Below the pieces are notes generated by a model, which was not told the DNA's origin, made no database searches, and saw only the letters and a list, made by a program, of their open reading frames with translations. From Planctomycetota bacterium (GTDB lineage Bacteria; Planctomycetota; MHYJ01; WSZJ01), in NCBI GenBank assembly GCA_038060895.1, contig JBBTCT010000042.1, positions 1 to 63,902 of the forward strand: a stretch of DNA of 63,902 nucleotides, given 5' to 3'. The position numbers were made by a program, and so were the translations under genes. Positions 8,043-49,274 of this stretch are shown here, in pieces; positions within the stretch are counted from its first letter, which is position 1; each line of letters begins with the position of its first letter.

Positions 8043-9209
8043 ATGGTTACAACGCGCCACATCAAGGCCAGGGCCGGCGACGTCCTCGTGCTTCTCGGGA
8101 CCAGCAAGGGAGCCTTCGCGCTCCGCTCCGACGCTTCCCGGAAGAAATGGGATCTCGGCGGACCCTACTTTCCCGGTCACCAGATCTACGCCCTCGCCTT
8201 CGACAGCCGCGCCGGCCGCAACCGCCTCTGGGCCGGCGCCCAGAGCGGCCACTTCGGCGCCATGCTCTCCTCCTCCGACGATTTCGGCCGCACCTGGACG
8301 AAGCCCGAGAAGCCGAATGTTCGCTTCCCCGAAGGGTCGGGCGGCGCACTGAAGCAGATCTGGCAGATTCATCCCGGGCCGGTGGGGGAGCCGGAAGTGC
8401 TGTACTGCGGCGTCGAGCCGAGCGCCCTGTTCGTATCCCGCGATGCCGGCGAGACCTGGGAGCTGAACCAGGGATTGTGGGACCATCCGCACCGGGCGAA
8501 ATGGGAGCCGGGTGGGGGCGGGCTCTGCCTTCACACGGTCGTTTCCGGCGAGGGCGGGGGACTGAACATTGCGTGCTCCACCGGTGGCCACTACCGAAGC
8601 GACGACGGCGGCCGGTCCTGGAATGCGCGCAACAAGGACATCCACGCTCCCTTCATTCCAGGCAACCCCGCCCCCGAATTCGGGCAGTGAGTGCATAAGG
8701 TCGTGCGGGCGCCGGGTGCGCCTGCCCGCCTCTACCTCCAGCATCACTGGGGGGTGTATCGCAGCGATGACAACGGCGACAACTGGAAGACGATCGAGAA
8801 GGGGCTCCCGACCACCTTCGGCTTTGCGCTTGCGGCGCATCCGCACGACGCCGACACGGCGTACGTCCTGCCGATCGAGTCGGACGGTTTCCGGTGTACG
8901 CCGGAAGGGAAGCTTCGGGTTTATCGAACGACGGACGGTGGGAAGATGTGGAGGCCGCTGACGAAGGGGCTCCCGCAGGCGAATGCGCTGGAGACGGTTC
9001 TGCGCGATGCGATGGACACCGACGCGTGCGCGAAGGCGGGCGTCTATTTCGGCACGAAGAGCGGCAAGGTCTACGCTTCAGCAGACGCCGGGGACAGTTG
9101 GAAGTGCGTCGCCGACGGTCTGCCGACGGTTTACTGCGTGAAGGCGGGGATCGTGGGCGGAAGGGTTGCTGTGAAGAAGGCGGTCGCCAGGAAACGTGGC
9201 AGGAAATAG
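8043..9209 (+). CDS. BNR/Asp-box beta-propeller (sialidase-like) protein with in-frame TGA (8688-8690), putative selenoprotein
   Basis: Two track ORFs join in frame as PEFGQ-TGA-VHKVV. Asp-boxes (SDDFGRTW, SRDAGETW, SDDGGRSW, SDDNGDNW, TTDGGKMW, SADAGDSW) occur on both sides of the TGA. SD GGAGG upstream. Confidence 0.85.
8705..8725 (+). promoter_or_regulatory. Candidate bacterial SECIS hairpin
   Basis: Stem GCGGGCGC/GCGCCTGC (8 bp, one G-U), loop CGGGU with 22 nt between UGA and loop. Confidence 0.6.
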
Positions 9210-9259
9210 GACGAATCGGCCCCCGGGCGCGATCCGGCGCCCGGGGCCGACTCTTCTCC

Positions 9260-9538
9260 ATGATCGTCTTCCTGATTCCCGGCTACCTCCGGCCATTCAC
9301 GGGTCACCGCCGATCCGTCGAAATCCCGGCAGGCCCGTGCACCGTGGGCGAGGCGCTCGACGCCGTTGGCGCGCAATTCCCGGGCGTCCGGGAGCGCGTC
9401 CTGCTGGAGACGGGCGAAGTTCGCCAGCACGTGAACATCTTCGTGGGTGCGGAGAGCATCCGGTACACCGGCGGGCTGGGGACGCCGGTCCCGGACGGCG
9501 CGGAGATCTCGATTCTCCCGGCGGTTTCGGGCGGGTAG
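9260..9538 (+). CDS. MoaD/ThiS-family ubiquitin-like (sulfur-carrier) protein
   Basis: 92 aa, TVGEALD, HVNIFV, ends in ILPAVSGG. Confidence 0.92.
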   Translation: MIVFLIPGYLRPFTGHRRSVEIPAGPCTVGEALDAVGAQFPGVRERVLLETGEVRQHVNIFVGAESIRYTGGLGTPVPDGAEISILPAVSGG

Positions 9539-9558
9539 GGAGCCGGCGACGAAACGGG

Positions 9559-9605
9559 TTGCACCGGCATCGAACTCCGCATATACTTCGTTAGTTGACG
9601 AAGTA
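9559..9605 (+). promoter_or_regulatory. ars operon sigma70 promoter and ArsR operator
   Basis: TTGCAC-17 nt-TATACT overlapped by the palindrome TACTTCGT-N6-ACGAAGTA. Confidence 0.8.
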
Positions 9606-9617
9606 ACGGAGCGACAA

Positions 9618-9983
9618 ATGAAGGCATTCCTCGCCGTCACCAAAGCCCTCTCGGACGAAACCCGCGTCCGCGCCCTTCTGTCTCTTCGAGAAGGCGAGCT
9701 CTGCCTTTGCCAGATCATCGAATTCCTCAAGCTTGCACCGTCCACGGTCTCGAAGCACATGGACCTCCTTCTCAAGGCCGGCCTCGTCGAGCGGCGAAAG
9801 GCAGGGCGCTGGCATTACTTCCGCCTTGCAGGGCGGGGAATCGGCGCGGAATCGCAGCGGACGCTTCGGTGGGTGCTCGATTCCCTGAAAGGCGAGCGCA
9901 GCGTGAAGGACGACGCCCGCGCGCTCTGCTGCGTCCGCAGAAAGGACCTCGAGGAGGTGAGCGCATGCTACCGGGCCGACTGA
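9618..9983 (+). CDS. arsR: ArsR/SmtB-family repressor
   Basis: KALSDETRVR, ELCLCQI, STVSKH, GRWHYFRL. Confidence 0.92.
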   Translation: MKAFLAVTKALSDETRVRALLSLREGELCLCQIIEFLKLAPSTVSKHMDLLLKAGLVERRKAGRWHYFRLAGRGIGAESQRTLRWVLDSLKGERSVKDDARALCCVRRKDLEEVSACYRAD

Positions 9984-10411
9984 AGGTCCTCTTCCTGTGC
10001 ACCGGCAATTCCTGCCGCAGTCAGATGGCGGAAGGGTGGGCGCGCCGGCTCAAGGCGGATTCCATCGAGGCGTACTCGGCGGGGATCAAGGCGAGCGGCC
10101 TCAACGCGGAGGCGGTCCGCGTGATGGCGGAAGCGGGGGTGGACATTTCCGGGCAGAAGTCGAAAACGGCCGAGGCTCTCCGCGACGTGGCGTTCGACTA
10201 CGTCGTGACGGTGTGCGGGAACGCGCACGAGACCTGCCCCGTGTGGCTCGGGAAGAAGGCGAAGGTCGTTCACGCGGGATTCGACGATCCGCCCGCGCTG
10301 GCGCGGCGGGCAAAGAGCGAAGGGGAAGCGCTGGAGATTTACCGGAGGGTCCGAGACGAGATTGCGACATTTGTCCGGAGCCTGCCTGGCGCATTGACGG
10401 AACGCCCGTAA
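9965..10411 (+). CDS. arsC: Thioredoxin-type (LMW-PTP fold) arsenate reductase
   Basis: VLFLCTGNSCRSQMAEG, VTVC..ETCP, FDDP; SD GGAGG. Confidence 0.92.
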   Translation: MLPGRLKVLFLCTGNSCRSQMAEGWARRLKADSIEAYSAGIKASGLNAEAVRVMAEAGVDISGQKSKTAEALRDVAFDYVVTVCGNAHETCPVWLGKKAKVVHAGFDDPPALARRAKSEGEALEIYRRVRDEIATFVRSLPGALTERP

Positions 10412-10427
10412 CAAAAGGAGGCAGATC

Positions 10428-11303
10428 ATGGGTTGCTGCGACGAACCGAAGCCGGACTACAGGAAGGTCGGGAAGGACATTCACGAGCAGGTACGCGACG
10501 GGTACGCGAAGATCGCTTCGACCGGGGTCCTTTCCACCGCGACGACGCCGCACGGCGGCGGGTGCTGCGGCGGCGTCAGCGCCGAGGACCTGGCCACGCA
10601 GATCGGTTACTCGGCAGACGAGATCCGCGCCCTGCCCGAGGGCGCGAACATGGGTTTGTCGTGCGGCAATCCGACCGCGATCGCCAATCTTAAGCCCGGA
10701 CAGGTCGTCCTCGACCTCGGCTCCGGCGGCGGTTTCGACGTCTTCCTTGCGGGCCCCAAGGTCGGCGCGACAGGACGCGTCATCGGCGTCGACATGACGG
10801 CCGAGATGCTGTCGAAGGCGCGGCGCAACGTCGCCGCCTACCGCAACCGGACCGGACTCGACAACGTCGAATTCCGCCTCGGGGAAATCGAGCACCTGCC
10901 GGTCGCCGACGCGAGCGTTGACGTCGTGATCTCCAATTGCGTCATCAACCTCTCGCCCGACAAGCCCGCCGTCTGGCGCGAGATCGCCCGCGTCCTCAGG
11001 CCCGGCGGCCACGTCGCCGCTTCCGATATGGCCCTCCTGCGACCGCTGCCCGCGTCGGTCGTGCAGATGGTCGAAGCGCTGGTTGGCTGCGTCGCGGGCG
11101 CGGTGCCGGTCGAGGAGTACTGGTCCATGATCGAAGCGGCGGGGTTGGCGGACATTTCGCTGCGGCCGAAGCCGGAATACGTCAAGTCGCTCTCCGATGT
11201 CCAGGACCCGCTCTACAAGGAAATCCTGAAAGCCCTCCCCGCGGGAACTTCCGCAGCGGATTTCATCACCAGCATCGACGTGACGGCACACAGGCCGCGC
11301 TGA
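10428..11303 (+). CDS. arsM: Arsenite methyltransferase
   Basis: [42 protein letters not shown]. Confidence 0.93.
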
Positions 11304-12008
11304 ATGTCCTTCACGACCGCGATGCCCGAAAGCCCCGCGACTCCTCTCTCCCGCGCCGCCGCGGCCGAAGGAATCGGCACGGCGTTCCTGCTCGTGGCGA
11401 TCGTCGGGTCGGGCATCATGGGCGAACGGCTATCGGGCGGAAGTGTCGGCCTGGCGCTGCTCGCGAATTCGCTCGCGACCGGCGCAGCCCTGATGGCGCT
11501 CGTGGCCGCCTTCGGGCACGCCTCGGGCGCGCACTTCAACCCCGCGGTCACCCTGGTCGAGGCCTGGCGCGGCGCGCTGAAGTGGCCCGCGGCCGCGGCG
11601 TACGTCTCGGCGCAGTTTGCGGGAGCCATGGCCGGTGTGGCTGCCGCCCACGGAATGTTCGGGGGCGCCGTCTTTCGCGTCTCGCTGACCGCGAGGACGG
11701 GCGCAGGCCAGTGGTTCGCGGAATTTGTCGCCACAGTGGGATTGCTGGGGATCATTCGCGGGGTAAGCGCCTCCAGGTCGCTGCTGGCGCCCGTGGCCAT
11801 CGGCGCCTGGATTGCGGGGGCCCTCTGGTTCACGGCCTCGACGTCGTTCGCGAACCCGGCCGTCACGCTGGCGCGCTGCTGGACGGACACGTTCGCGGGA
11901 ATCCGGCCGCTGGATGCTCCGGCGTTCATCGTCGCTCAACTCGCCGGCGCCGTCGCCTCGGCGTTGCTTTGGCCCAGGGTCTTCGGTGAGAAGCAGGTCG
12001 CGGCCTAG
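11304..12008 (+). CDS. MIP/aquaporin-family channel (probable arsenical efflux)
   Basis: SGAHFNPAVT and SFANPAVT NPA motifs; last gene of the ars operon. Confidence 0.9.
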   Translation: MSFTTAMPESPATPLSRAAAAEGIGTAFLLVAIVGSGIMGERLSGGSVGLALLANSLATGAALMALVAAFGHASGAHFNPAVTLVEAWRGALKWPAAAAYVSAQFAGAMAGVAAAHGMFGGAVFRVSLTARTGAGQWFAEFVATVGLLGIIRGVSASRSLLAPVAIGAWIAGALWFTASTSFANPAVTLARCWTDTFAGIRPLDAPAFIVAQLAGAVASALLWPRVFGEKQVAA

Positions 12009-12355
12009 CGCTTCTTCCAGTCCCCGCCCGCGATCCGCTTCGCTCCCGCCGTCGCTTCCGAGGGCATCAGGTAGGCTTCCACCACCCGCCCGTCCTCGAG
12101 AGGGATTCGCTTCCGCTGGAAAAGCGTCGGGACCTCCTCCAGTTCGTCGAGCCGCGCCAGCGTCGCGCCGTCGATTTCCCAGACCTCGCCCTCCACGGCG
12201 ACCCGGCCCCCCGCGACGAGCGTCGGGTACGGGCCCAGGTCCGCGAGTTCGAACGCGGGAATCGTCCGGCCTTCGCCCGCGAACGTCGCGCCGGCGAGAA
12301 GCGCGTGGTTGCGCTCGCCGCGGAGCAGGGTGCCGTAGACGAACACGAGGGGCAC
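12005..12355 (-). CDS. Gamma-glutamylcyclotransferase (AIG2-like)
   Basis: VFVYGTL, GPYP, VEGEV, LDELE. Confidence 0.9.
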   Translation of the reverse strand: MPLVFVYGTLLRGERNHALLAGATFAGEGRTIPAFELADLGPYPTLVAGGRVAVEGEVWEIDGATLARLDELEEVPTLFQRKRIPLEDGRVVEAYLMPSEATAGAKRIAGGDWKKR

Positions 12356-12357
12356 CG

Positions 12358-12888
12358 CTACTTCTTCACCAGGCCGCCGAGCGTTTCCTCGAACAGCGAC
12401 AGCGCACGGAAATCGGGAAGCACGACCACGACTCGCGCCGGCGCGCCGTCTTCCTTGAGGCGCTTCACGATGGCCCCGAGAAGCGCCTTCGCACACAGAT
12501 CCATCGGGACGCCGAAGACGCCGGTGGACAAGGCGGGAATCGCGATGCTCTGGATACCGTTTTTCGAAGCCAGGTTGAGGGCCGCTTCGGTCGCCGAGGC
12601 GATCTTCTCGTCCTCCTCGCCTTCGCCCATTTTCGGGCCGACGGCGTGAATCACGTACTTGCAGGCCAGCTCACCGGCGCCCGTGATTGCGGCGTTTCCG
12701 ACGGAGCAGCCGCCGATCGCGTCGCATTCCCGCTGGATCATGGGGCCGCCCTTGCGCGCGATCGCGCCGGCGACGCCCGCGCCGAGCTTCAGCAGGTGGT
12801 TGGCGGGGTTCACGATCGCCTCGACGTCGCATTCGGTCAGGTCGCCCTGAGCGAGTTCGAGCTCGGATTCGTAGATGCGCACTTGCAC
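12358..12888 (-). CDS. Macro-domain protein
   Basis: QGDLT, AIVNPAN, GAGVAGAI, VIHAVGP, IPALSTGVFG. Confidence 0.93.
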   Translation of the reverse strand: MQVRIYESELELAQGDLTECDVEAIVNPANHLLKLGAGVAGAIARKGGPMIQRECDAIGGCSVGNAAITGAGELACKYVIHAVGPKMGEGEEDEKIASATEAALNLASKNGIQSIAIPALSTGVFGVPMDLCAKALLGAIVKRLKEDGAPARVVVVLPDFRALSLFEETLGGLVKK

Positions 12889-12891
12889 GGG

Positions 12892-13470
12892 TCAGTGTCC
12901 TTTCGTGAAGCGGGAGATTTCGAGGCCTTTGCCGATGGGGAGGGTGAGGGATTCGACGCCGGGCAGGGCGCGAACGTGGGCGACGTAGTCCTTGAGGTCG
13001 TGAGACAGGATGTTGTCGGCGGCGACGAGGGCGCCGGCGGAGAGCCTGAGCATGCCGAGAAACCGGACATAGTCGTCCTTTTCACAGTCGATGAGGACGA
13101 AGTCGCTTTCACCGCACCGCGGGATGAGCACGGCGGCGTCGCCGAGGAGGAAGTCCACGCGATCGGCGAGGCCGACTTCCTGAATCGTCCGCTTCGCCTC
13201 ATCCTGTCTCTTCGGCTCCAGCTCGATCGACGCGAGGCGTCCCCCGCTCCGGCGCGCGGCTTCGGCAAGCGCGATCGTGGAGAGGCCAGAGGACCCGCCG
13301 ATTTCGAGTATCCGTTTCGCGCCGACTCCCGAGGCCATGGCGCACAGGACCAGCGCGCTGTCGGGTTCCAGGTTGCGGTGGCGCTCTCCCTGGGGAAGTT
13401 TCTTCCCGTCCTGGTCGAGCTTTCGCTTCCAGAGCCGGTCGATCGCCGCCTGCTGCGCGGTGGAAAACAT
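12892..13470 (-). CDS. O-methyltransferase (Methyltransf_3-like)
   Basis: RILEIGGSSGLS, DFVLIDCEK, VAADN. Confidence 0.88.
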   Translation of the reverse strand: MFSTAQQAAIDRLWKRKLDQDGKKLPQGERHRNLEPDSALVLCAMASGVGAKRILEIGGSSGLSTIALAEAARRSGGRLASIELEPKRQDEAKRTIQEVGLADRVDFLLGDAAVLIPRCGESDFVLIDCEKDDYVRFLGMLRLSAGALVAADNILSHDLKDYVAHVRALPGVESLTLPIGKGLEISRFTKGH

Positions 13471-13518
13471 GGGCGCATGATAGGACCCGGGCGGCGCAGG
13501 CCCAAAAGGAAGCGGTCG

Positions 13519-14694
13519 CTACTTCTTGAGGCGGAAGAACACCTCGCAGGCCTCGAGCCACAATCCGACGTCGCCGTCGGCTTTCATGCGGCCGATTTCG
13601 TTCCCGTTCACCGAGAGAACTGCGTCGGCTCCGTCGATGCGGTACGACGCAACCGGGCACGCGATCGCCTTGTCGATTTCCGCGGCCGCCAGCGTCTTCC
13701 AGATTCCCTTGTCCCAGCGCACGATCGCTGCGCGTCCGGCGGAAACCTGCAGGGTGACGTAGTCGTCCTTGGACCTGAAGTTGAACATGAATCCTGCCTT
13801 CAGGCTGCCCAGCTTCAGTTCGATCTCGGCTTCGAGGGAGGCGGGCGCGGTCCGGAACAACGCGCCGCACCCTGTTTTCGACTTGCCCTCGATCGCGTTT
13901 CCCCGCTCCTGCCAGCTCTGCCAGAAGATTCGAAGCGGCTGCTGGTGCGAGGCGAGCCAATCCTTGAAGGACTTGACGAACTCGGGGCCCGTTTTCCCGA
14001 AGGACTTCTCCCACGCTTTCGCCGGGGATTTTCGGGCGTCGAGTTGCGCGGCCAGATTTTTCCAGCGTGCTTCGTGGTTGTTGACCAGGAAGTGCACCAG
14101 CGCCCAGCCGACCGGGCGTTCGCACGCGACCGTCCCTTTCGCGATGCCTTCGAGATCCTCCTTGAGATCTCCGAACTGCTTGAGCGCCTGCGCGGGGTAG
14201 TCCTCGAGCGACGCCGCCGGTATGACCCCCGTCCGGAGTTCCTTCCCGTTCCAGTTGTGCATTCCAAAATACTCGGCCATCCCTTCCGTGTACCACGCGG
14301 CCGGCGGCGCGCTGTTGCCGGCCGCGGTCAGCAGGTGGAACTGGTGCGTCCCCTCGTGCAGGATCAGCTGCCGCGTCCAGTACTCGCTCGGCTGAACGTA
14401 CAGGTACCCCTTCTTCGTCTCCGGCGCATAAAACCCGCCCGCCTCAACCGTCGCTACCTTGTCCCGCTTCAGCGCCTCCTGGAAGCCCTCGAAGGTCGAG
14501 TAGACCTCGATGCGCAGGCGCTCTCTGGGCGCGCGGCCAAAGTACTTCGACAGGTGGGCGTGAAGCGCCTCCAGCATCGCGCCGGCGTCCTGCGCGTCGA
14601 TCGATTCCGCGTAGAGGTCATAGTGCGCGGTCTTGAGCTCGGCGCCCGGTGGAGGACATGCCAGGAAGGTCAGGGCGATCAGGGGCAGGATCAT
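13519..14694 (-). CDS. Secreted HExxH metallopeptidase-like protein (DUF1570/peptidase MA-like), paralog 1
   Basis: AGGFY, ILHEGTHQF, WYTEGMAEYF; signal-like N-terminus. Confidence 0.8.
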   Translation of the reverse strand: MILPLIALTFLACPPPGAELKTAHYDLYAESIDAQDAGAMLEALHAHLSKYFGRAPRERLRIEVYSTFEGFQEALKRDKVATVEAGGFYAPETKKGYLYVQPSEYWTRQLILHEGTHQFHLLTAAGNSAPPAAWYTEGMAEYFGMHNWNGKELRTGVIPAASLEDYPAQALKQFGDLKEDLEGIAKGTVACERPVGWALVHFLVNNHEARWKNLAAQLDARKSPAKAWEKSFGKTGPEFVKSFKDWLASHQQPLRIFWQSWQERGNAIEGKSKTGCGALFRTAPASLEAEIELKLGSLKAGFMFNFRSKDDYVTLQVSAGRAAIVRWDKGIWKTLAAAEIDKAIACPVASYRIDGADAVLSVNGNEIGRMKADGDVGLWLEACEVFFRLKK

Positions 14695-14720
14695 GATGAA
14701 GTTGTATCCGATGGACCCGC

Positions 14721-15914
14721 TCAGCGCTTCACACGGAAACGCGCGCAGCAGCCTTCGACGTTCAGGCCGACGTCTCCGTCGAGAGCGGCCCGGTAGATTT
14801 CCTGCCCGTTCGCCGACAGAACCGCTTCGTCGCCTTCGTGTCGAAATGACACTAATGGCTTCTCGAGCACTGAAATTTCCGCCGAGGCGAGCCGTTTCCA
14901 CTCCCCGTTCTCGCGCTTCACGACGCGGGCGGTGGCGCCGAGGACCTGGAAGAGGCAGTAGGTGTCGTTGCCGCGGTGGTTGAAGGCGATCCCGGCCTTG
15001 AGGTCGCCGGAAACAAGTTCGATTTCGCAGTCGAATGATGCCGGCGCTTCCTTGAAGAATGCCGCCGACACGACCGCGCCTTTTCCCTCAAGGAGTTCGC
15101 CGCGTTCCTGCCAAGCGATCCAGGCGACGCGCATTGGCTGCTGGTGGGCGTCGATCCATCCGCGGAGTTCGCGGCCGAGATCCGGGCCGGCTTCGCCGCA
15201 GGCATTGGCCCAGGCGGTGGACGGGAGTTCTCCGTCATCGAGCCGGCCGGAGAGCGCGCTCCACCAGGCGGGGCGCGCGTTGACGAGGTAGTGGACCAGC
15301 GCCCACGCGAGCGGGCGGTCGCAGCGCGACAGCCCCAGCGCGACGGCCGCGGCGTCGTCGTCAAGCTCGGCGAGTTGCCCTGAAGCCTTTGCGGGGTAAT
15401 CCTCGAGCGACAGGGCCGGGACGACGCCGGTCCGAAGGGTTGTCCCGTCCCAGTTGTGCATTCCGAAGTACTCGGCGAGTCCCTCCGTGTACCACTCGGC
15501 GGCTGGACCGGTGTTTCCGGTCGCGGAGAGGAAGTGAAACTGGTGAGTCGCCTCGTGGATGAGAAGTTGCCGCGTGAAATACTCGCTCGGCTGCACGAAC
15601 AGGTAGGCCTTCTTCGTCCCCGGCGCGTAGTAGCCGCCGGCATCCACCTGCCACTGGTTGTCCCGGCCGAGAGCCGCCTTCATCGCGGCCTTCGTTGCAA
15701 AGATCTCGACGCGCAGGCGGCCGCCGGGCGACGAGCCGAAATAGGCGGCGAGCTGGTCCCAGAGCGCGTCGAGAACGGCGGCCGATTCTGCCGCTCCGGG
15801 CGATTCGGAGTAGACGTCGTAGTGCGCGGACTTCACCTCGACGCCAGGCGCGACCTGCGCCATTGCGGGCAGGGCGGCGAGCGCCAACGCCGCGGCCGGG
15901 AGGCATCGGAGCAT
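14721..15914 (-). CDS. Secreted HExxH metallopeptidase-like protein, paralog 2
   Basis: AGGYY, LIHEATHQF, WYTEGLAEYF; collinear with the neighbouring gene. Confidence 0.8.
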   Translation of the reverse strand: MLRCLPAAALALAALPAMAQVAPGVEVKSAHYDVYSESPGAAESAAVLDALWDQLAAYFGSSPGGRLRVEIFATKAAMKAALGRDNQWQVDAGGYYAPGTKKAYLFVQPSEYFTRQLLIHEATHQFHFLSATGNTGPAAEWYTEGLAEYFGMHNWDGTTLRTGVVPALSLEDYPAKASGQLAELDDDAAAVALGLSRCDRPLAWALVHYLVNARPAWWSALSGRLDDGELPSTAWANACGEAGPDLGRELRGWIDAHQQPMRVAWIAWQERGELLEGKGAVVSAAFFKEAPASFDCEIELVSGDLKAGIAFNHRGNDTYCLFQVLGATARVVKRENGEWKRLASAEISVLEKPLVSFRHEGDEAVLSANGQEIYRAALDGDVGLNVEGCCARFRVKR

Positions 15915-17002: not shown

Positions 17003-17076
17003 GCGCAGGAGTCTAGGGGATTCGCGAGGGGCGCGGCTGCAGAATCGTCGCCGGGGTCTGGTCTAATGGGAGGGAG

Positions 17077-19115: not shown

Positions 19116-19175
19116 CCGGGAACCTTTCGCCGCGGCGGGCGTCACAAGGGCAGCCCCCTGGTCCCGGAGGATTGC

Positions 19176-20908: not shown

Positions 20909-20937
20909 TGAGTAGTTGGTAGTGGGTAGTGGGTAGG
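20906..20937 (+). repeat. Heptamer (TAGTGGG) tandem repeat starting at a stop codon
   Basis: TAG at 20906, 20913, 20920, 20927 and 20934. Confidence 0.85.
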
Positions 20938-21419: not shown

Positions 21420-21426
21420 GGACAGC

Positions 21427-22041
21427 ATGGCAGACCCCGCCGCGGAGTTCATCGCGCAACTCGACCGTGCGCCGGCCGACCAGCGCCCCCCGAACTGGAC
21501 GCACGTGAAGGCCCTGATGGCGCGCCGTGCGCCGGCGCTCGGAGAAGCGGCGCCTGACTTTGAGCTCGCGACGCCGGAAGGGAAAACGCGAATCCGCCGC
21601 TCCGGGTTCCAGGCCGGCCGACCGCTCGTGCTGAACTTCGGCAGCTTCACCTGACCGCCCTTCCGCCGCCATGCCGACACCATGGAGCGGCTCTACCGGG
21701 AGTGGAGCGATCGGGTCGGGTTCCTGATGGTGTACATCCGGGAGGCGCGTCCTTCGGACGAATGGCAGATGCCGTCGAACGTCGAGCAGAGCGTGGTGTT
21801 CGAGCAGCCGCGCACGGAAGCGGCGCGCGCGGAGGCGGCGGGAGCGTGCTGCTCGCGGCTGAAGGTCTCGATGCCGTGCGTCGTGGACTCGCTCGACAAC
21901 GCGGTGGACGCGGCGTACGCGGCGTGGCCGGAGCGGCTGTTCGTCGTGGACGGAAAGGGGAGAATCGCGTTTGTCACGGAGCAGGGGCCGTGGGGATACC
22001 AGCCCGAGTTGCTGGAGCAATGGCTGAAGGCGCATGTCTGA
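21427..22041 (+). CDS. Iodothyronine deiodinase-like (thioredoxin-fold) protein with in-frame TGA (21652-21654), putative selenoprotein
   Basis: APDF..RPLVLNFGSFT-TGA-PPFR..FLMVYIREARPSDEW..VDSLDN..YAAWPERLFVV. Confidence 0.9.
21663..21690 (+). promoter_or_regulatory. Candidate SECIS hairpin
   Basis: CCGC..CCATG-(CCGACAC)-CATGG.GCGG; 19 nt between UGA and loop. Confidence 0.5.
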
Positions 22042-31001: not shown

Positions 31002-31799
31002 ATGCGTGCATTCTGTCTGGCGCTCTGCGTCGTTGCATTCGCGCTCAGCGCGGTCGCGGACGGCAAGAAGGGCGGCAAGGCACCGCCTGCGGGGTATGCC
31101 TGGGAAGCGAACTATGATCAGGCGAAGCTGAAAGCCGCGGCGGAAGGAAAGCTGCTCTACATCGAGTTCTGGAAGGAAGGCTGACCGCCTTGCGCCAAGA
31201 TGGATACGGTTACGTATCCCTCGGACATGGTGAAGAAGTTCCTGGAGCCCCTCGTGGTGATGTACGTCAACCCGACCGCGGGCAAGGAAAACCAGAAGCT
31301 GGGCGCGCAGTTCAACGTCGATTCCTATCCGCGCATGGTTGTCGTGACGCCGAAGGGCGAGACCCTGATCGAGATCAAGGGCGGCCTGACGAGCCCGGAG
31401 GATTTCGTCGGCGGCCTCGTCAACGACTGGTGGAACAATTACGTCAACGCTCAGAACGCCAAGCCGCAGGACGTTCCGGTCATCGCGAAGAACATCTGGC
31501 TGCTGATGACGTGGTTCCCGCACTCCGATGCGGCGTCGAAGGCTGCCGAGACGAAAAAGCAGTTCGACAGCAACGAGGAATTCAAGGCGACCTGGGAACC
31601 GCTTCAGAAGGCGCATGAGCGCGAGATGCTCGATGCGAAGGCGGACGCGCAGCTGAAGCTGGGCAAGAAGAAGGAAGCGATCGAAACCTGGAAGGCTCTT
31701 CTCACAGGTTACGAAGGTTCGAAGGAAGCCGAGAACGCGGCGAAGATGCTGAAGAAACTGGGAGTGAAGCTGGACCCGCCGCCCGCGGAAAAGAAGTAG
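31002..31799 (+). CDS. Exported thioredoxin-family protein with UxxC motif (in-frame TGA 31182-31184) and helical C-terminus, putative selenoprotein
   Basis: Signal peptide, YIEFWKEG-TGA-PPCAKM, cis-Pro motif FNVDSYP; strong SD AGGAGG before 31002. Confidence 0.9.
31202..31219 (+). promoter_or_regulatory. Candidate SECIS hairpin
   Basis: Perfect GGATACG-GTTA-CGTATCC; G-first loop with 24 nt between UGA and loop. Confidence 0.7.
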
Positions 31800-40326: not shown

Positions 40327-40408
40327 CCCGCGCGGCGCCGGATACACAGCAAGTCTTTTTTTCGGCCCGGACCCACCTTAGAATCTCCCCAGTCTCGGGG
40401 AGGAATTC

Positions 40409-42582: not shown

Positions 42583-42612
42583 ACTTGCGGCTGTCCCGGA
42601 ACAGCTCTGTTT

Positions 42613-43929
42613 TTATTTCGCCGTCGGCCTCCCCTTGTACTTCTCGTACAACCGCGTGTGCCGGCTCTCGAGCGATCGCTCGATCCCGCCGATCCACATC
42701 CGCTTGACGTTGGAGCGGATGTCGAGGATGTCGCCGTCCACGGCGATCAGGCTCGCTTCCTTTCCCTTCTCGATCGAGCCCAGCCGGTCCGCGATTCCGA
42801 GCATCTTCGCAGGAGTCAGCGTGATCGCTTTCAACGCTTCTTCCCGCGGCAACCCGAACGCCGCGGCCTGGGCCGCGTGGTAAGGGAGGTTGCGTGCGCC
42901 CCAGGTTCCCCATGAGCCGGCGCCGACGGAAAAGGCGACCGGAACGCCGGCGTCGAAGAGCCTTTTGGGGGCCGTGAAGTGCACGTCGTAGGATTCGGTA
43001 TCGCGCGCGGGCTGGTCGAACACGTTTTCGAAGATCACCGGGATCTTCGCCTTCGCGAGCTCGGCCGCGCACCGGTCGGCGTCGCGCGCGCCGGCGAGCA
43101 CCACGTTTTTCAGCCCCTGCCGTTCGACCCACTCGATCGCCGCGCGGATCTGCCGCTCTTCGTTCGCATGGATGAAAATCGCGATCTCGCCCTTCAGCGC
43201 CGGTCGCATCGCTTCCCACGCCGGCACGATCCGGCCGTCCGGGATGCCGCCGGAAGCGCGTCCCTTGTCGTAGGCTTTCGCTTCTTCGAAAAAATCGTCG
43301 AGTTCCTTCAACCGCGCGCGGCGTTCCTCAGCCTGTTTCTCCGGACCCTTTTCCTCGTCCGGATTGTCAGGGGCGCGCCGCCGCCGCCGGCGGCGTCCTG
43401 AGTCAAGATTGAGGTCCATGCCGGGCCAGTTCACGTGAAGCGCTGCGGGGCCGCGAACGGTCATGTCTTCCCAGGTCCACCCGTCGAGGGCGATCACGCC
43501 GGAGCGTCCCGCGATCGTGCCGCCCGTCGGGAGCGTCAGGGCGTGCGTGATGCCGTTGGCCCGAGCGACCGGAATCAGTTCGGAATCGGGATTCACGGCG
43601 ATCCACGCATCGACATCGGGCGTCCATCCCCCGACTTCGGCATCGTCATTCGTGGCCCGGACAGCGCCGATCTCGGTCAGCCCGAGCGACGAGGTCGCGG
43701 CGATGAGTCCCGGGTAGAGGTGAAGCCCCTTCAGATCGACAACCGTCGCCCCGCCCGCATCGACCGAAACTCCGACCGCGACGATCTTCCCGTCCCGTAC
43801 CAGGACATCGCCGGTAGCCAGCGTCTCGCCCGACACCGTATGTACGGTGGCGCCCCTGAGGACCAGGTCCTCAGCTCTCGAGACACCCGCCAGGAGTATG
43901 AGCACCGACAGGATCACCGCAGTTTTCAT
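42613..43929 (-). CDS. Secreted amidohydrolase-family protein (first HxH lost)
   Basis: GATVHT, LYPGLIA, GITHA, ITLTPAKMLG..GSIEKGK. Confidence 0.85.
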   Translation of the reverse strand: MKTAVILSVLILLAGVSRAEDLVLRGATVHTVSGETLATGDVLVRDGKIVAVGVSVDAGGATVVDLKGLHLYPGLIAATSSLGLTEIGAVRATNDDAEVGGWTPDVDAWIAVNPDSELIPVARANGITHALTLPTGGTIAGRSGVIALDGWTWEDMTVRGPAALHVNWPGMDLNLDSGRRRRRRRAPDNPDEEKGPEKQAEERRARLKELDDFFEEAKAYDKGRASGGIPDGRIVPAWEAMRPALKGEIAIFIHANEERQIRAAIEWVERQGLKNVVLAGARDADRCAAELAKAKIPVIFENVFDQPARDTESYDVHFTAPKRLFDAGVPVAFSVGAGSWGTWGARNLPYHAAQAAAFGLPREEALKAITLTPAKMLGIADRLGSIEKGKEASLIAVDGDILDIRSNVKRMWIGGIERSLESRHTRLYEKYKGRPTAK

Positions 43930-43955
43930 GGTCGCCACCCAAAGGGGATCTCTTT

Positions 43956-43984
43956 CCTACCCACTACCCACTACCTACTACCTA
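43956..43984 (-). repeat. Second copy of the TAGTGGG heptamer repeat, after a stop codon
   Basis: The 20-mer GGTAGTGGGTAGTGGGTAGG is identical to 20918-20937. Confidence 0.85.
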
Positions 43985-46876
43985 CTTTCTTTCCGCCCCC
44001 TCGCAATGCACTTCCCAGCCGTAGTCGTGCTGGTGCTCGAGGCACTCTTCAAAGAACCGGTCGTCGCCGCCCTTGCCGCCACGTCCTCCGCCTCCGCCGG
44101 ACGAAGCGAGCTTCTTCGCCTTGTCGCGCAGCTCGCTCCATTCCTTGCGCCTCGCCTCGGAGCGCTCCAGCGCCTTCGCACGCTCGAAGTACCGCTTCCC
44201 CTCGATCCACGTCTGCTGGCAGACCGTCCGCGTGTCGAGAGGCGAGTGCGACCAGATCGCGAAGTCGGCATGCTTGCCCGCTTCCAGCGATCCAATCCAC
44301 TTGTCCACGCGCAGCTGGATCGCCGGATTCAGCGTCACGAACTTCAGCGCTTCGACCTCGTCAACGGCTCCGTATTTCGTGGCCTTCGCCGCTTCGAGAT
44401 ACATGCGCCGGGCGAGCTCCGCGCTGTCCGAGTTGAAGGAAACGCACACGCCGCGCTGGTGCATCAGCGCGCCGGCGTGCGGGATCGCGTCGTAGACCTC
44501 GAACTTGTACGCCCACCAGTCGCTGAAGCATGACCCGCCGGCGCCGTGCTTCGCGATCTCGTCGGCGACCTTGTACCCCTCGAGAACGTGCTGAAACGTG
44601 CCGATCTTGATGCCGAAGCGATCCATTTCGCGGACGAGCATGAGGATCTCGTCGCCCCGGTAGGAGTGGCAGTGGATGACGCGCGTCCCCGTCAGCAGTT
44701 CACCCAGCGTCTGCAGCTCCAGGTCGCGCCTCACCGGCGCCGGATCCCGCCCTTCGGCCTTCCCCTTGTCGAACGCCGCAAGGGCTTCGAGGTATTGCTT
44801 CGCGGCCGTGAAGCGGTTTTCGTAGAAGGTTTTGACTCCCATGCGCGTCTGGGGGAAGCGCGTGACGAATTTCTCGCCCCAGTTGGACTGTTTCACGTTT
44901 TCGCCGAGGGCGAATTTGATCCCGGGGATCGCCTCCTTGAAGCGCAGGCCGTCCGGCGATTCGCCGTCCCGGAGCTTGATGACGCAGTTCTGTCCCCCCA
45001 TCGGGTTGGCGGAGCCATGGAGGAGGTTCGAGCAGGTGAGGCCGCCGGCGAGTTCCTGCGCGAGGTTGTCGGTCTCCGAGTTGACGACGTCCTGGATCCG
45101 GACCATCGCGGAAGACGGAATGGTGCCCTCGTTCACGTCGCCCACGATCGCGCAGTGGGAGTGGCAGTCGATGAGCCCCGGCGTGACGTGCAGCCCCTTG
45201 CCGTCTATCACCGTCGCGCCGGCAGGCGGAACGATGTCCTTCGCGATCGCGACGATTTTCCCGTTCTCGCACTGCAGGTCCGCGCCCTCGATCCGCCCGA
45301 GCGGCCCGCAGGTCCAGATTGTCGCGCCCTTCACAACCACGACGGCGGGCGTTGCGTCCGGCCCGCGCTCCTCGAGCGGGGCGCGCGCCACGCGTTTGGC
45401 CGCGAGATCGCGCTGTTCCTGCTTCTTCTTCTCCGCTTCGGCCTCTTTCTTCTTTTCCTCCTCGGTCTTCGCCTTGCCGTCCTTCGGCTCTTCCCTGGGC
45501 TTCTCCCCGGGCTTGACCGGGTAAACGCGCCCATCCACCCAGACCGAGACGATCTTCGCTTCCGGGTCGAAATACGAACCTGCCACCACGGTCAGGTTGG
45601 CGAGCTTTCCGTTTTCGATCGTCCCTGCGCGTTCCTCGATCCCGCACAGTTTCGACGGCACGACCGTGAGCGCCGCGAGCGCCTCCTCCTCGGTCAGGCC
45701 GCGGTCAATGGCAAGCCTCAGGTTCTTCCGGAAGCTCCCCTTGTCGGGCAGCCCGTCGCACGTCAGCGCGATCTGGACCTTCCGCTTCACCAGGACCGCC
45801 GGATTCTCCGCGGCCCAGTCCCACGCCCGCAGCTGGTCGAGCGAAACCTGGACCCAGTCCGATTCCTCAGGAAGCGTCGGCGCCTCCGGGAAGTTCACGG
45901 GAACGATCATCGGCGCTCCCGCCGCTTCGGCGAGGTCGGGGCGGCGCCACTCCTGCCCGCTGGCGCGAATGAGGAACTTCAGGCCCAGTTCCTTCGCAAG
46001 GCGCGCTTCGAAGTCGGTCACCAGGGCGGAGTCGGATTCGAAAGCGACGAAGCGGTCGCTGACGAGGAAGGGGACGAGAGCGTCGAGGGCGGGGTTTTCG
46101 GCGGGGCGTTGGCGGCCGGCGGGGTTGCGTGTGAAGTGTTCCTTGTCGCGGGCGTGCCAGTCGGCGTCCAGGAAAGCCTGGCGGATGGCGGCGATGGCGG
46201 CCATGTGCGAGGAGGGGTACGCGTCCAGTTCCTCGGGGACGCCGGTCATGGCGCTGACGAGTGCGGCGACGGACCATACTTCGGGCTTCAGCACCAGGGT
46301 GTTCGGATCTCCGTCACCGAGGACGAGGAGCGCGCTTTTTCCGCGCAGAATGCCTTTCGACGGGACGACGTTCAGCGCGGTAAACCCGATCTCACGCCAT
46401 CCCTCGACAACCTTCGGGTCCGGCGACAGGCCGTCCACGACGCGATTCTCCGGCGTCATTTTTGCGAGCGCGGACGACGGCCCCGGCGTTCCCGGGTCGC
46501 GCTGCGTTCCCGGCGAGCCGGCGAACCCGCTGTCGGCGGCCATCGGCCCGCCCTGGGGGCGCTGCGGCGCCAGCCCGCCGTCCTCGAGTTTCGCCCAGGC
46601 GTCGATCAGCCCCGCGTAAATCGTCCAGCCCTTCGCATCCCAGACCCGGGCATCGGCCGGCGGCTTGACGTCCGCGCCCACGGCCTCGATCCGGCCGTCG
46701 CGGATCACCACGGTCCCGGGGTCGATCACCTTTCCCGGGGCGACGACAACCTTGCCACCCACCAGTGCGTGGCAACCCGGCGGGTCAGGGCGGTGCCCCG
46801 GGGGGCGGATTTCCTGGGATTCGGCGGGAAGCGCGATCAGCGCGAGCGCGAAAACGATCGAGGCAATGCGAACCAT
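43982..46876 (-). CDS. Secreted two-domain amidohydrolase
   Basis: Second domain has PGLIDCHSH, KFALGEN, HCHSY, FQH, NSD; first domain is degenerate. Confidence 0.9.
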   Translation of the reverse strand: MVRIASIVFALALIALPAESQEIRPPGHRPDPPGCHALVGGKVVVAPGKVIDPGTVVIRDGRIEAVGADVKPPADARVWDAKGWTIYAGLIDAWAKLEDGGLAPQRPQGGPMAADSGFAGSPGTQRDPGTPGPSSALAKMTPENRVVDGLSPDPKVVEGWREIGFTALNVVPSKGILRGKSALLVLGDGDPNTLVLKPEVWSVAALVSAMTGVPEELDAYPSSHMAAIAAIRQAFLDADWHARDKEHFTRNPAGRQRPAENPALDALVPFLVSDRFVAFESDSALVTDFEARLAKELGLKFLIRASGQEWRRPDLAEAAGAPMIVPVNFPEAPTLPEESDWVQVSLDQLRAWDWAAENPAVLVKRKVQIALTCDGLPDKGSFRKNLRLAIDRGLTEEEALAALTVVPSKLCGIEERAGTIENGKLANLTVVAGSYFDPEAKIVSVWVDGRVYPVKPGEKPREEPKDGKAKTEEEKKKEAEAEKKKQEQRDLAAKRVARAPLEERGPDATPAVVVVKGATIWTCGPLGRIEGADLQCENGKIVAIAKDIVPPAGATVIDGKGLHVTPGLIDCHSHCAIVGDVNEGTIPSSAMVRIQDVVNSETDNLAQELAGGLTCSNLLHGSANPMGGQNCVIKLRDGESPDGLRFKEAIPGIKFALGENVKQSNWGEKFVTRFPQTRMGVKTFYENRFTAAKQYLEALAAFDKGKAEGRDPAPVRRDLELQTLGELLTGTRVIHCHSYRGDEILMLVREMDRFGIKIGTFQHVLEGYKVADEIAKHGAGGSCFSDWWAYKFEVYDAIPHAGALMHQRGVCVSFNSDSAELARRMYLEAAKATKYGAVDEVEALKFVTLNPAIQLRVDKWIGSLEAGKHADFAIWSHSPLDTRTVCQQTWIEGKRYFERAKALERSEARRKEWSELRDKAKKLASSGGGGGRGGKGGDDRFFEECLEHQHDYGWEVHCEGAERK

Positions 46877-46962
46877 CGTGGCGGCTCCTGAAGGGACCGC
46901 GAAGCGTACGACTCAGCCTGAAGTGCAGGTAGCGAAAACAAGTCCTGGGATACGATGGCGAT

Positions 46963-47745
46963 ATGCGATTACCCCTCTATCAGGTCGATGCGTTCGCTTC
47001 ACGAGTCTTCGCCGGCAACCCGGCCGCGGTCGTCCTGACCGAGCGTTCGCTCGACGACGCGACGATGCAATCCGTCGCCGCCGAGAACAACCTCTCGGAG
47101 ACCGCGTTTCTCCGATGGACTCACGACGGCTGGGAGATCCGCTGGTTCACGCCCGCCTGCGAAATCGATCTCTGCGGACACGCGACGCTTGCCGCTGCCT
47201 GGGTCGTCTTCAACCACCTGAATACGGAACTCACGGCGGTCGAGTTCGGCTCGAAGAGCGGCGCCCTTCGAGTTTCAAAACTCGCCGACGGCGCGCTGGA
47301 GCTCGACTTTCCCGCCCGTCCCCCCGCGACCTGCCCGCCGCACCCCGAACTGGCAGCGGGACTGGGCGGAACTCCGCGCGAGTTCTTCAGGGCGCGCGAC
47401 TACATGGCGGTCTACGCAACGGAAACGGAAATCCGCGCGCTTCGCCCCGACTTCCCCCGTCTCGGCCGCATCGACGCCACCGGCATCATCGCGACGGCGC
47501 CAGGCGACTCTTGCGATTTTGTCTCACGCTTCTTTGCCCCCGCTTCCGGCATTGACGAGGACCCCGTGACCGGCTCCTCCCACTGCACGCTGATCCCCTG
47601 GTGGTCGGCGCGCCTGGGCAAGAGGAAGCTCCGGGCTCTTCAGGTCTCGAAGCGTGGCGGCGAGCTGACGTGTGAACTCCGCGGCGACCGGGTCGGGATC
47701 GCGGGGAAGTGCGCGCCATTTCTCGAAGGGTCGATCACCCTTTAG
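46963..47745 (+). CDS. PhzF-family isomerase
   Basis: QVDAF, GNPAAV, NLSETAF, EIDLCGHATLA, EDPVTGS. Confidence 0.93.
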   Translation: MRLPLYQVDAFASRVFAGNPAAVVLTERSLDDATMQSVAAENNLSETAFLRWTHDGWEIRWFTPACEIDLCGHATLAAAWVVFNHLNTELTAVEFGSKSGALRVSKLADGALELDFPARPPATCPPHPELAAGLGGTPREFFRARDYMAVYATETEIRALRPDFPRLGRIDATGIIATAPGDSCDFVSRFFAPASGIDEDPVTGSSHCTLIPWWSARLGKRKLRALQVSKRGGELTCELRGDRVGIAGKCAPFLEGSITL

Positions 47746-48394
47746 CCGCTTCGGCGTCGGGCTTTCCGGATGGCGGCGGATTGAAAATCCATCGCAGTGC
47801 GAAATGCCCGGGGGCGTACATGATGGCCACCGTTGCCATCCACGTCAGGAACATGTGAAGCGGGATCGAGTTGCGGACCCTGTGATGCCAGATCGGGTCT
47901 TCGAACGCGAAGTTGACGTTTTTCGTCGTGAAGTGCGGAGCGACGACGATTGTCATCGTCATCACGACCAGGGCGATGAGGGACTGGAAGGCGAGCGCGC
48001 GGCGGTCGTAACCGGTTTTGCGCAGCGACAGGAGCAGGAAAGGCACCCAGAACACGTGAAAGAGGGATAGCAGGCGGACGAAGAGCGAGTAGTCGGACAT
48101 CCACATATAGGCCGTGAGCTCGCCCGCGCCGATCAGGAAGTGTCCCGTGACCACCCTGGCCCCGGCGTCGAGACACCAGAGCACGTGAATGACAAAACAG
48201 GCCAGCAACTGGCTTGAGAGCAGCAGGGAATTCCGCGTCCACCAGCCCAGCACGGTCAGGAACAGAGCGATGTCACAGAGCTGCATGAAATTCGGCCCGC
48301 CCCACACCACCCAGTAGCAGGGCACGAGCACCGCAAGAAACACGAGGCCGAACCACTTCAGGATCGGGAAGTCGACTCTCGGGTCGGCGGGCAT
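47735..48394 (-). CDS. Integral membrane protein
   Basis: About 6 hydrophobic segments; LCDI, SLFH, NVN. Confidence 0.75.
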   Translation of the reverse strand: MPADPRVDFPILKWFGLVFLAVLVPCYWVVWGGPNFMQLCDIALFLTVLGWWTRNSLLLSSQLLACFVIHVLWCLDAGARVVTGHFLIGAGELTAYMWMSDYSLFVRLLSLFHVFWVPFLLLSLRKTGYDRRALAFQSLIALVVMTMTIVVAPHFTTKNVNFAFEDPIWHHRVRNSIPLHMFLTWMATVAIMYAPGHFALRWIFNPPPSGKPDAEAAKG

Positions 48395-48419
48395 GGAGGA
48401 ATCATACCGCGGTGGTCCG

Positions 48420-49274
48420 CTACTTCTTCTCGACGGCGCTCTCCTCGGCTCCTGCCCCGCACTCCGCCGGCGCCACTTCCTCGTCCTTCTGCAGCCGGCC
48501 TTTCACGCGCTCCCGGAGCAGCTTCTGGTACTCGGCCGACAGCCCCAGCTTCCCGATCTCCTTCTCGAACAGCGATGCCTTGCCGTCCCCAGCGAGGTAT
48601 CCATTGAGGCGCGCGGCCGCCGTGGAATTCTCGAGATCGCGTTCGCTGCTGTAGTAGCGCTTCAACTCGTTCATGAACGCCTTGTTCGCGCGAAGCGTGT
48701 ACTTCTGGTGGTAGTCCTCGGCCCAGGTGAACTGGGTGAGAGGGACGATGGCAGTCGCCACGGCGACCTTTTCCTTCTCGAGCTTCTCCTTCGACGACTG
48801 CGCGAGACGCTTCTGGTCATCGTTCATCGTGAACACGGCGCTGCGGTACTGGACAGACCAGGACTTCGACGAAGGGTCGTGGGACTTCCAGAAGATCTCG
48901 AGGAGTTTTTCGTAGGAAATCACGGTCGGATCGAAATCGACCTGGAAGGACTCGGTGTGATCGCCGAGGTCGTGGTAGGTCGGATTTCTGGAAGTGCCGC
49001 CGGCGTATCCGACGCGGGTGCGGATGACACCAGGGAGCGCCCCGAACTGGGCGTCCGGGCCCCAGAATCAGCCGAGCGCGAACGTGGCGGTCTCGAATTT
49101 TGCGGGGGCGGCGGCGTCGATCGGGGGGAGGGCGGGCACGGGTTTTTCCTCTCTGGGGGCCGGATCGCTCCCGGAAGGGCGCACTGGAGCGGGATCGGGC
49201 TCGCCGCGGGCGCGGAGGCCCAGGGCGAGAGCCAGGACGATCGAAAACCGGGCGATTCGAAGTGTGTTCTGCAT
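48420..49274 (-). CDS. msrA: Exported methionine sulfoxide reductase A with in-frame TGA (49070-49068), putative selenoprotein
   Basis: ATFALG-TGA-FWGPD..RTRVGYAGG..GDHTE..QYRS..AEDYHQKY; the TGA sits at the catalytic Cys of GCFWG. Confidence 0.93.
49034..49056 (-). promoter_or_regulatory. Candidate SECIS hairpin
   Basis: GGACGCCC-AGTTCG-GGGCG(C)TCC; 19 nt between UGA and loop. Confidence 0.6.

Follow-up and report, generated by a model that had tools for sequence, protein, structure and literature searches.

In bacteria, selenocysteine (Sec) is inserted by a dedicated machinery in which SelD supplies the selenophosphate, Ser-tRNA(Sec) is turned into Sec-tRNA(Sec) by SelA, and SelB delivers this tRNA to a UGA codon accompanied by a selenocysteine insertion sequence (SECIS). 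The prototype gene of this bacterial SelB/SECIS system is E. coli fdhF. Here we analyze a 63,902-nucleotide contig from a Planctomycetota bacterium (JBBTCT010000042.1 of GenBank assembly GCA_038060895.1, positions 1 to 63,902 of the forward strand; this whole stretch is called the window below), in which four genes contain one in-frame TGA each, together with the genome to which it belongs. Like the known SelB/SECIS genes, those described here combine an in-frame UGA at a Cys position, a hairpin in the coding region that often has G and U in its loop, and a genome encoding tRNA-Sec, SelA, SelB and SelD; the FdhA of this genome, with the motif 'NRTUHAPS' and a GGUCU loop, follows the same pattern. 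The departure from the prototype lies in the number of genes (about 62) and in the kinds of protein, whereas the mechanism would be identical, namely standard SelB/SECIS recoding.

In the proposed mechanism, an mRNA hairpin about 15 to 30 nt past the UGA (the bacterial SECIS) would recruit SelB with its Sec-tRNA(Sec), and selenocysteine would be inserted where homologues carry a redox-active cysteine, with TGA staying an ordinary stop elsewhere in the genome. About 62 genes, mostly for exported thioredoxin-fold oxidoreductases, would be decoded in this way in an oxygen-respiring member of the Planctomycetota.

The main texts of published descriptions give at least 57 selenoproteins for the delta-1 symbiont of Olavius algarvensis, a 13.5-Mb bin (PMC1976440), at least 46 for the isolate Desulfosediminicola flagellatus (PMC12013277) and 39 for Syntrophobacter fumaroxidans (PMC9312934, PMC5029168). 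Selenoprotein-rich phyla named there are Deltaproteobacteria, Clostridia and Synergistetes, 78.3% of the rich organisms being anaerobes (PMC5029168); the word 'Planctomycetes' has no occurrence in the main text of that survey, and a literature search covering main texts returned nothing further. The present genome resembles the published rich cases in its dozens of Sec genes, mostly for thiol oxidoreductases or thioredoxin-fold proteins. Those cases are Deltaproteobacteria, whereas here we deal with a planctomycete that has three COX1 genes. The density of Sec genes is about 11 per Mb, compared to about 4 per Mb in the delta-1 bin, the two counts coming from different pipelines.

As to protein families, the main text of the Global Ocean Sampling (GOS) survey lists Deiodinase-like, MsrA, Trx-like 2, Prx-like, AhpD-like, UshA-like, MoeB and FdhA selenoproteins (PMC2398784). 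These cover three of the four window genes (deiodinase-like, Trx-like UxxC and MsrA) and many others in the genome, and 'BNR', the repeat of the fourth, does not occur in that main text. Unlike the GOS families, the propeller, FG-GAP/UnbV_ASPIC and alpha-2-macroglobulin (A2M)-like families found here match no NCBIfam model named '(seleno)protein'. Unusual features are the scale, the phylum and the oxygen-respiring background, together with several families that match none of the selenoprotein models searched.

Four unrelated genes with one in-frame TGA each

The reading of the four TGAs as selenocysteine codons, in intact genes that are unrelated to one another and belong to a genome-wide set of about 62, has by our estimate a probability of about 92%. 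The open reading frames (ORFs), the domains that run through the TGA, the columns shared by Sec and Cys, the machinery genes and the statistics specific to TGA were all observed directly. The original prediction placed in-frame TGAs at 8688 (+), 21652 (+), 31182 (+) and 49070 (-); all four are present, each inside one long ORF when TGA is translated as selenocysteine (U). A column occupied by both Sec and Cys was seen by alignment for the propeller, and for the other three genes this comparison was with TGA-bearing paralogues or relatives.

The first gene has the following features, the gene itself being defined by its ORF and Pfam matches:

8043..9209, + strand: probable selenoprotein gene for a seven-bladed beta-propeller of the BNR/Sortilin-Vps10 type, 388 aa, U216
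8688..8690, + strand: Sec codon of the propeller gene, motif 'PEFGQUVHKV'
8698..8731, + strand: SECIS-like hairpin of the propeller gene, core stem 8705-8712/8718-8725, loop CGGGU at 8713-8717

The protein matches Sortilin-Vps10 with 60 bits and BNR_2 with 36.6 bits, the latter over residues 159-311 and therefore across U216. In an alignment of 27 homologues the column of U216 holds U in 9, C in 14 and D in 4 sequences, the last four forming a divergent 'GHDPHC' subgroup of propellers, and the neighbouring His218 is invariant. Public records of the propeller have TGA in one case and TGC at the same place in three others. Among full-length matches in 61 genomes (60 related genomes and our own), many have one or two TGAs and others none.

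The hairpin after this TGA has a perfect 8-bp stem (-14.5 kcal/mol), and its apical loop starts 26 nt from the U of UGA. A hairpin of -10.3 to -14.5 kcal/mol, its loop at 26-30, follows the TGA in all eight listed homologues that have one, whereas only one of 13 Cys forms reaches -10 kcal/mol. In the 'VG[ST]UVHKLLLHPA' subgroup the TGA forms build the stem through the codons CCG GCG G[CU]G CCG GG, and the TGC forms lose it through CCC proline codons. This stem, linked to whether the gene has TGA or TGC, is the clearest structural evidence of the analysis.

An AlphaFold model of the propeller (mean predicted local distance difference test score 91, predicted template modelling score 0.90) has as its closest solved fold PDB 3b7f, with template modelling (TM) scores of 0.86/0.91, 37% identity and a phmmer E-value of 8.6e-71. 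This structural-genomics entry, a 'putative glycosyl hydrolase with BNR repeats' (Reut_B4987) whose function is only putative, is likewise a single seven-bladed propeller; unlike the window protein it belongs to the 'GHDPHC' subgroup, with Asp in place of Sec and a Cys three positions further on. Assignment to the F510_1955 family glycosylhydrolases (NF045728) was rejected at 61.2 bits against a cut-off of 175, as was a GH74-type hydrolase, GH74 structures matching at a query TM score of 0.29-0.60 only. No '(seleno)protein' model of NCBIfam matches the BNR propeller, and the family is apparently undescribed as a selenoprotein; families called undescribed in this text may appear in supplementary tables of the cited papers. 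A second type of BNR protein is encoded at C1:116835 (-) (contigs of the assembly are numbered C1, C2 and so on, and the number after the colon is the position), with a TGA in 'KIPDUPMDAP'. Its BNR_2 match lies upstream of the TGA only, it has neither paralogue nor strict hairpin, and it was left uncounted.

The second gene encodes a deiodinase-like protein:

21427..22041, + strand: probable deiodinase-like thioredoxin-fold selenoprotein gene, 204 aa, U76, with an ordinary TGA stop at 22039
21652..21654, + strand: Sec codon of the deiodinase-like gene, motif 'FGSFTUPPF'
21665..21691, + strand: weak, interrupted hairpin, loop 21674-21680 starting 23 nt from U

PF00837 (T4_deiodinase) matched with 123.9 bits against a cut-off of 27, over residues 36-207 and across U82 of the searched translation (P0002). 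NCBIfam NF038285 (deiodinase_rel) gave 198.4 bits against a cut-off of 250, covering the C-terminal half of the model only (174-340 of 347). One in-frame TGA was found in 25 of 25 matches, our own genome included, when 31 related genomes were searched, and the paralogue at C9:169903 has its TGA at the same column.

The third gene encodes a thioredoxin-like protein:

31002..31799, + strand: probable exported thioredoxin-like selenoprotein gene (Thioredoxin_7/DsbD-gamma type), 265 aa, U61 in UPPC
31182..31184, + strand: Sec codon at the first position of the UxxC redox motif, 'WKEGUPPCAK'
31202..31219, + strand: SECIS-like hairpin GGAUACG-GUUA-CGUAUCC, loop 31209-31212 starting 28 nt from U

PF13899 (Thioredoxin_7) spans U61 over residues 33-117 (36.4 bits, cut-off 27), and all matches to the NCBIfam models DsbD, DsbH and TsoB were far under their cut-offs. 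Judged by eye, the N-terminus has a hydrophobic, signal-like stretch. The gene is one of a cluster of 37 paralogues in which TGA aligns to TGA, and Thioredoxin_7 matches with one TGA are frequent among 24 relatives at the level of genus, order and class. Its hairpin recurs in paralogues with changed bases and preserved pairing. Within the UxxC Thioredoxin_7 group (31182-31219 of the window; C1:199134, C1:25984, C2:62170, C12:200035, C5:109563 and C15:88708) the SECIS stem is coded by the conserved codons of 'MD-x-x-T-Y-P', as GGAUACG/CGUAUCC, GGAUGCG/CGUAUCC, GGACAGCG/CGCUGUCC or GGACGGGA/UCCUGUCC. Protein motif and RNA stem thus appear to constrain each other in this group, as judged from paired changes that were seen rather than formally counted as covariation.

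The fourth gene, on the opposite strand, encodes a methionine sulfoxide reductase:

48420..49274, - strand: probable selenoprotein gene for methionine-S-sulfoxide reductase MsrA with a C-terminal helical domain, 284 aa, U69 in GUFWG
49068..49070, - strand: Sec codon of the MsrA gene, motif 'FALGUFWGPD'
49025..49064, - strand: SECIS-like hairpin of the MsrA gene, loop AGUUCG at 49043-49048 in one fold and GCCCA in another

Here PF01625 (PMSR) matched with 145.6 bits (cut-off 23.7) over residues 62-199, across U69, and the MsrA model TIGR00401 with 127.7 bits (cut-off 108.1). PF20939, the 'selenoprotein MsrA helical domain', was marginal with 24.0 bits against 23.7. The N-terminus looks signal-like by eye. 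Depending on the fold, the apical loop of the hairpin starts 19 or 23 nt from the U of UGA. TGA was present in 19 of 19 full-length matches of this Sec-type MsrA (E <= 2.2e-47, our own gene included). A second, Cys-type MsrA without TGA occurs in most of the genomes, here at C1:58467-58928. U69 presumably stands in for the catalytic Cys of GCFWG.

Selenocysteine machinery in the genome and its relatives

The assembly comprises 5,418,064 bases in 47 contigs, the window being contig C42, with a completeness of 86.5%, a contamination of 1.5% and a G+C content of 66%. A search for selA, selB, selD and tRNA-Sec had been put forward as the check on a large selenoproteome, which missing machinery would have contradicted; all four genes are there. 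The tRNA-Sec scored 71.7 bits with Rfam and has the anticodon tca according to ARAGORN, and selA (541 bits), selB (344 bits, both parts) and selD (364 bits) were all over their curated cut-offs. The selD product is itself a putative selenoprotein, with 'CAGUASK'. In the 61 genomes searched, our own included, selB was over its cut-off in 43 (17 of the 22 of high quality), and relatives across the class appear to share both the Sec machinery and the recoded genes. The public records nearest to the propeller gene, 'MAG: Planctomycetota bacterium isolate X3_MetaBAT.40' (87% identity) and 'uncultured Planctomycetia bacterium' (81%), agree with the Planctomycetota-like organism proposed from the sequence of the window. 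Three COX1 genes (492.7, 442.3 and 142.2 bits) indicate oxygen respiration.

Genome-wide scan of in-frame stop codons

Candidates were in-frame stops with at least 25 coding codons on each side in the best-scoring of six frames, as judged by a dicodon model trained on 1342 long ORFs; a codon-only model, which missed two of the four window sites, was dropped in its favour. This gave 150 TGA, 142 TAG and 69 TAA candidates, compared to 300, 278 and 105 before the best-frame filter. A raw excess of TGA was abandoned as a measure because same-frame neighbouring genes swamp the signal, and four independent features, which do separate TGA from the other stops, were compared instead; the fourth, RNA structure, is treated in the next section, and the first three are:

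Cys within 4 residues of the stop: TGA 47 of 150, TAG 3 of 142, TAA 2 of 69
Stop aligned to a stop in a paralogous candidate, with at least 8 residues aligned on each side: TGA 56 of 150, TAG 4 of 142, TAA 2 of 69
Pfam domain across the stop: TGA 44 of 150, TAG or TAA 0 of 60 (random sample)

The original prediction held that TAA and TAG breaks as frequent as TGA breaks would speak against recoding, and at the level of domains that run through the stop none was found in the sample of 60. The 44 domain-spanning TGAs comprise 35 of 53 with paralogue support, three of three window genes and six of 94 without a paralogue match.

The main scan was blind to Sec codons near gene ends, and selD was missed by it. 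A separate scan within 25 codons of the gene end returned nothing secure, with 5 of 290 TGA, 0 of 227 TAG and 1 of 122 TAA passing both filters. One TGA of this kind, C7:97370 in 'GAGUCPEE*', may be followed by a terminator hairpin after a true stop.

Hairpins downstream of the TGA codons

The covariance model that had been suggested for the four hairpins was replaced by a descriptor test against in-frame TGC controls because the hairpins come from unrelated genes and differ in register. To count as strict, a hairpin had to have 5 bp or more in a perfect stem, a free energy no higher than -7 kcal/mol and a loop of 3-8 nt that began 17-34 nt from U. The 62 accepted sites of this test include two that were later removed as false and leave out the UshA-like site. 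Strict hairpins were found as follows:

Accepted TGA sites: 42 of 62
In-frame TGC controls: 412 of 3000
TAG/TAA candidates: 16 of 211
Remaining TGA candidates: 18 of 88

A strict hairpin with GU in its loop followed 29 of the 62 TGA sites and 81 of the 3000 TGC controls (Fisher p = 4e-27). The minimum free energy of the 48 nt after accepted TGAs averaged -17.3 kcal/mol, compared to -14.2 kcal/mol for 1500 in-frame TGC codons (Mann-Whitney p = 3e-8) at equal G+C (0.677 and 0.674). Taken together, the hairpins exceed chance expectation by far.

In the window, strict hairpins follow the TGAs at 8688, 31182 and 49070; the one at 21652 is interrupted and is the least convincing SECIS of the four. 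The original prediction, which put a hairpin loop 19-24 nt downstream of every TGA, came close, in that a hairpin occurs at all four sites with loops at 26, 23, 28 and 19/23 nt. The evidential weight it gave to these hairpins is borne out for the class, which stands well above the TGC controls, and not for the four taken alone, which are uninformative in a genome of 66% G+C.

Weighing of alternative explanations

Several observations weigh against selenocysteine as the explanation or against the size of the set. Raw in-frame TGAs are not in excess over TAG and TAA, and the genome-wide number therefore rests on secondary criteria. The paralogue test let through at least one pair that was false, C24:136916 with C5:111422; Pfam alone exposed it (the NTP_transferase domain begins after the stop), and it was removed. 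The strict hairpin rule was failed by 20 of the 62 accepted sites, among them 21652 (-3.3 kcal/mol), and single hairpins were no better than shuffles, with z of -0.56 at 8688, -0.27 at 21652, -1.93 at 31182 and -0.19 at 49070. The count may include a truncated duplicate, at C34:53473. A further limit is that the sequence comes from a metagenome bin, with the contamination given above; the 61 counted sites apart from selD are nonetheless spread over 21 contigs. Finally, SelB binding of the hairpins and the incorporation of selenium are what we infer from the DNA.

The alternative that survives best, and which we still consider improbable, is a context-dependent read-through in which Cys or Trp enters some or all of the sites through near-cognate decoding that needs no selenium, for example by Cys-tRNA(Sec) under selenium scarcity. 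The 20 sites without a strict hairpin would fit such a process, as would the high selenium demand of about 60 genes. It is countered by a machinery that is complete in this genome and conserved among relatives, as the distribution of selB indicates, by hairpins that are tied to the TGA and not to the TGC forms, and by the membership of many sites in families already known to use Sec.

Selenocysteine codons also account better for the data than real stops, either between two same-frame neighbouring genes or between a gene and its restart. Such neighbours are the commonest cause of in-frame TGA candidates in this genome: by eye, same-frame genes plainly adjoin at the end of a Pfam domain in about 35 of the 94 TGA candidates that lack a paralogue match, and the TGAs at 11301 (+) and 12894 (-) in the window lie where such genes meet. 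At all four sites considered here, however, a single domain continues through the TGA and the corresponding column of full-length homologues holds Cys or TGA, which leaves this explanation with hardly any probability.

Pseudogenes, that is nonsense mutations in decaying genes, or errors of sequencing and assembly could be expected in a metagenome bin, and the gene at C33:80647 (+) could be such a case. There, a GNAT domain (residues 49-138 of the tested stretch) spans a TGA at 63 with neither a nearby Cys nor a hairpin; the gene could be a pseudogene, have a misplaced start or hold an odd Sec site. For the four window genes we consider decay or error extremely unlikely, the domain-spanning breaks being TGA only as far as the 60 sampled TAG/TAA candidates show, placed on Cys columns and kept as TGA across relatives of the same genus, order and class.

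A changed genetic code with TGA as sense throughout (Trp, Gly or Cys) would explain why TGA stands at Cys positions, as it would if TGA encoded Cys, and can be dismissed for practical purposes: TGA is the commonest ordinary stop of the genome (1606 TGA, 1423 TAG and 662 TAA at 3691 ORF ends after 100 strongly coding codons), in line with the earlier exclusion of codes 4 and 25, many TGAs lie at the last position of Pfam profiles, and the Sec system is complete.

Size and composition of the probable selenoproteome

On the basis of sequence comparisons, we arrive at 62 probable selenoprotein genes, a conservative count of our own rather than the output of a curated pipeline, and the large selenoproteome that had been predicted is thereby supported. 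The number is made up of 54 genes with paralogue support (56 minus the two false ones), six single genes, selD and a small membrane protein with 'CGSU', whose hairpin has a GUU loop. By family, the composition is as follows, all groups except the single genes coming from the paralogue test:

Thioredoxin-fold proteins: 37 genes by our own tally, of which 21 Thioredoxin_7/DsbH-like, 7 AhpC-TSA/Redoxin, 1 thioredoxin proper and 8 without a Pfam match
'APDYUTHFWRQV' family: 7 genes
BNR propellers: 2 genes
Deiodinase-like: 2 genes
Alpha-2-macroglobulin-like: 2 genes
FG-GAP 'GUC': 2 genes
AhpD-like: 2 genes
Single genes with a spanning Pfam or NCBIfam model: FdhA, DUF1223, YciW-related/CMD, MoeB/ThiF, MsrA and UshA-like 'PCGU'

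Five sites with a GU-loop hairpin as their sole support were left uncounted (C1:411303, C1:437453, C7:7543, C27:40654 and C15:158170). The last lies in a peroxiredoxin-like gene that is itself already counted, at C15:157801 (+) with 'SPNUQAAK', and may be a second Sec codon 122 codons further on, in 'FAFGUPIPRS', followed by a GUC-loop hairpin of 8 bp. Identical N-terminal halves, 'ATWUGGC' included, are shared by the redoxin genes C34:53473 and C34:61347 (+), which lie 8 kb from each other; the first is only about 120 codons long. The MoeB/ThiF adenylyltransferase gene at C22:311855 (+) has its TGA in 'FAPGUNEAGVLG', with PF00899 (125.9 bits) and NF006444 (318.7 bits) across U. HdrA/FrhD-type and glycine-reductase selenoprotein genes did not turn up in the TGA scan, in which no search was aimed at them.

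At least 24 of the 37 thioredoxin-fold proteins have a signal- or lipoprotein-like hydrophobic start by eye, and most selenoprotein products look exported. The likely role of the exported set is extracytoplasmic thiol/selenol-disulfide exchange and the repair of oxidised methionine.

The seven 'APDYUTHFWRQV' paralogues lie at C36:20001, 38552, 44030, 47398 and 50835, C24:200004 and C30:16101. One full-length member, of 1207 codons, combines FG-GAP_3 repeats, the Sec site, UnbV_ASPIC, an AhpC-TSA/Redoxin domain with CxxC and TPR repeats, and a hairpin loop AGGUC recurs in the family 20 nt from U. In two alpha-2-macroglobulin-like ORFs, C12:5475 (+) with about 1,590 codons and C21:65299 (-) with about 1,940, a TGA takes the place of the thioester cysteine, in 'LPHGUFEQS' and 'LPYGUFEQT', with Pfam TED_complement across U. 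Matches to them number 54 in the 61 genomes, these two included, 36 with one TGA and 18 without; in 10 examined loci the TGA lies within G-U-x-E-Q, and the hairpins are weak by the strict rule. The literature search covering main texts returned nothing on Sec in macroglobulin thioesters, and NCBIfam has no model for the A2M, FG-GAP, 'LACTUNNG' or 'U..A..LR' candidate stretches.

Significance of a possible selenoprotein-rich lineage

With about sixty Sec genes, this organism would be among the most selenium-dependent bacteria described. We lean, by a narrow preference, towards the view that its lineage is an unrecognised selenoprotein-rich clade with about 60-70 Sec genes per 5-Mb genome, at or above the published maximum, marked by an expansion of exported thioredoxin-fold proteins in cells that respire oxygen instead of living as anaerobes, and by undescribed selenoprotein families: the BNR propeller, the seven-copy FG-GAP/UnbV_ASPIC/redoxin/TPR family and macroglobulin-like proteins with Sec in the G-C-x-E-Q warhead, where it would form a selenoester. 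If a planctomycete that has cytochrome oxidase genes carries about 62 Sec genes, the published link of large selenoproteomes to anaerobic Deltaproteobacteria, Clostridia and Synergistetes would be weaker, and one may ask how such cells secure their selenium. Roles of selenium outside classical redox motifs could be tested on the propeller, on the FG-GAP family and, most of all, on the macroglobulin thioester site.

Gene callers split or truncate each such gene, so that about one gene in 90 would be mis-annotated in the clade and a whole layer of extracytoplasmic redox chemistry would be hidden. The many probable SECIS elements of this one genome could serve as a training and test set for bacterial SECIS prediction.

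Other features of the window

The window of 63.9 kb has four Sec sites where the genome-wide 62 would predict 0.73, a mild local enrichment (Poisson P about 0.007); their genes do not form an operon. Between the propeller and the deiodinase-like gene, positions 9600-12010 (+) hold what is by eye an arsenic-type gene run with an ArsR-like regulator, a low-molecular-weight phosphatase/ArsC-like protein, an S-adenosylmethionine (SAM) methyltransferase and an aquaporin-like channel. The methyltransferase gene of this run ends at the TGA at 11301, an ordinary stop followed by ATG.

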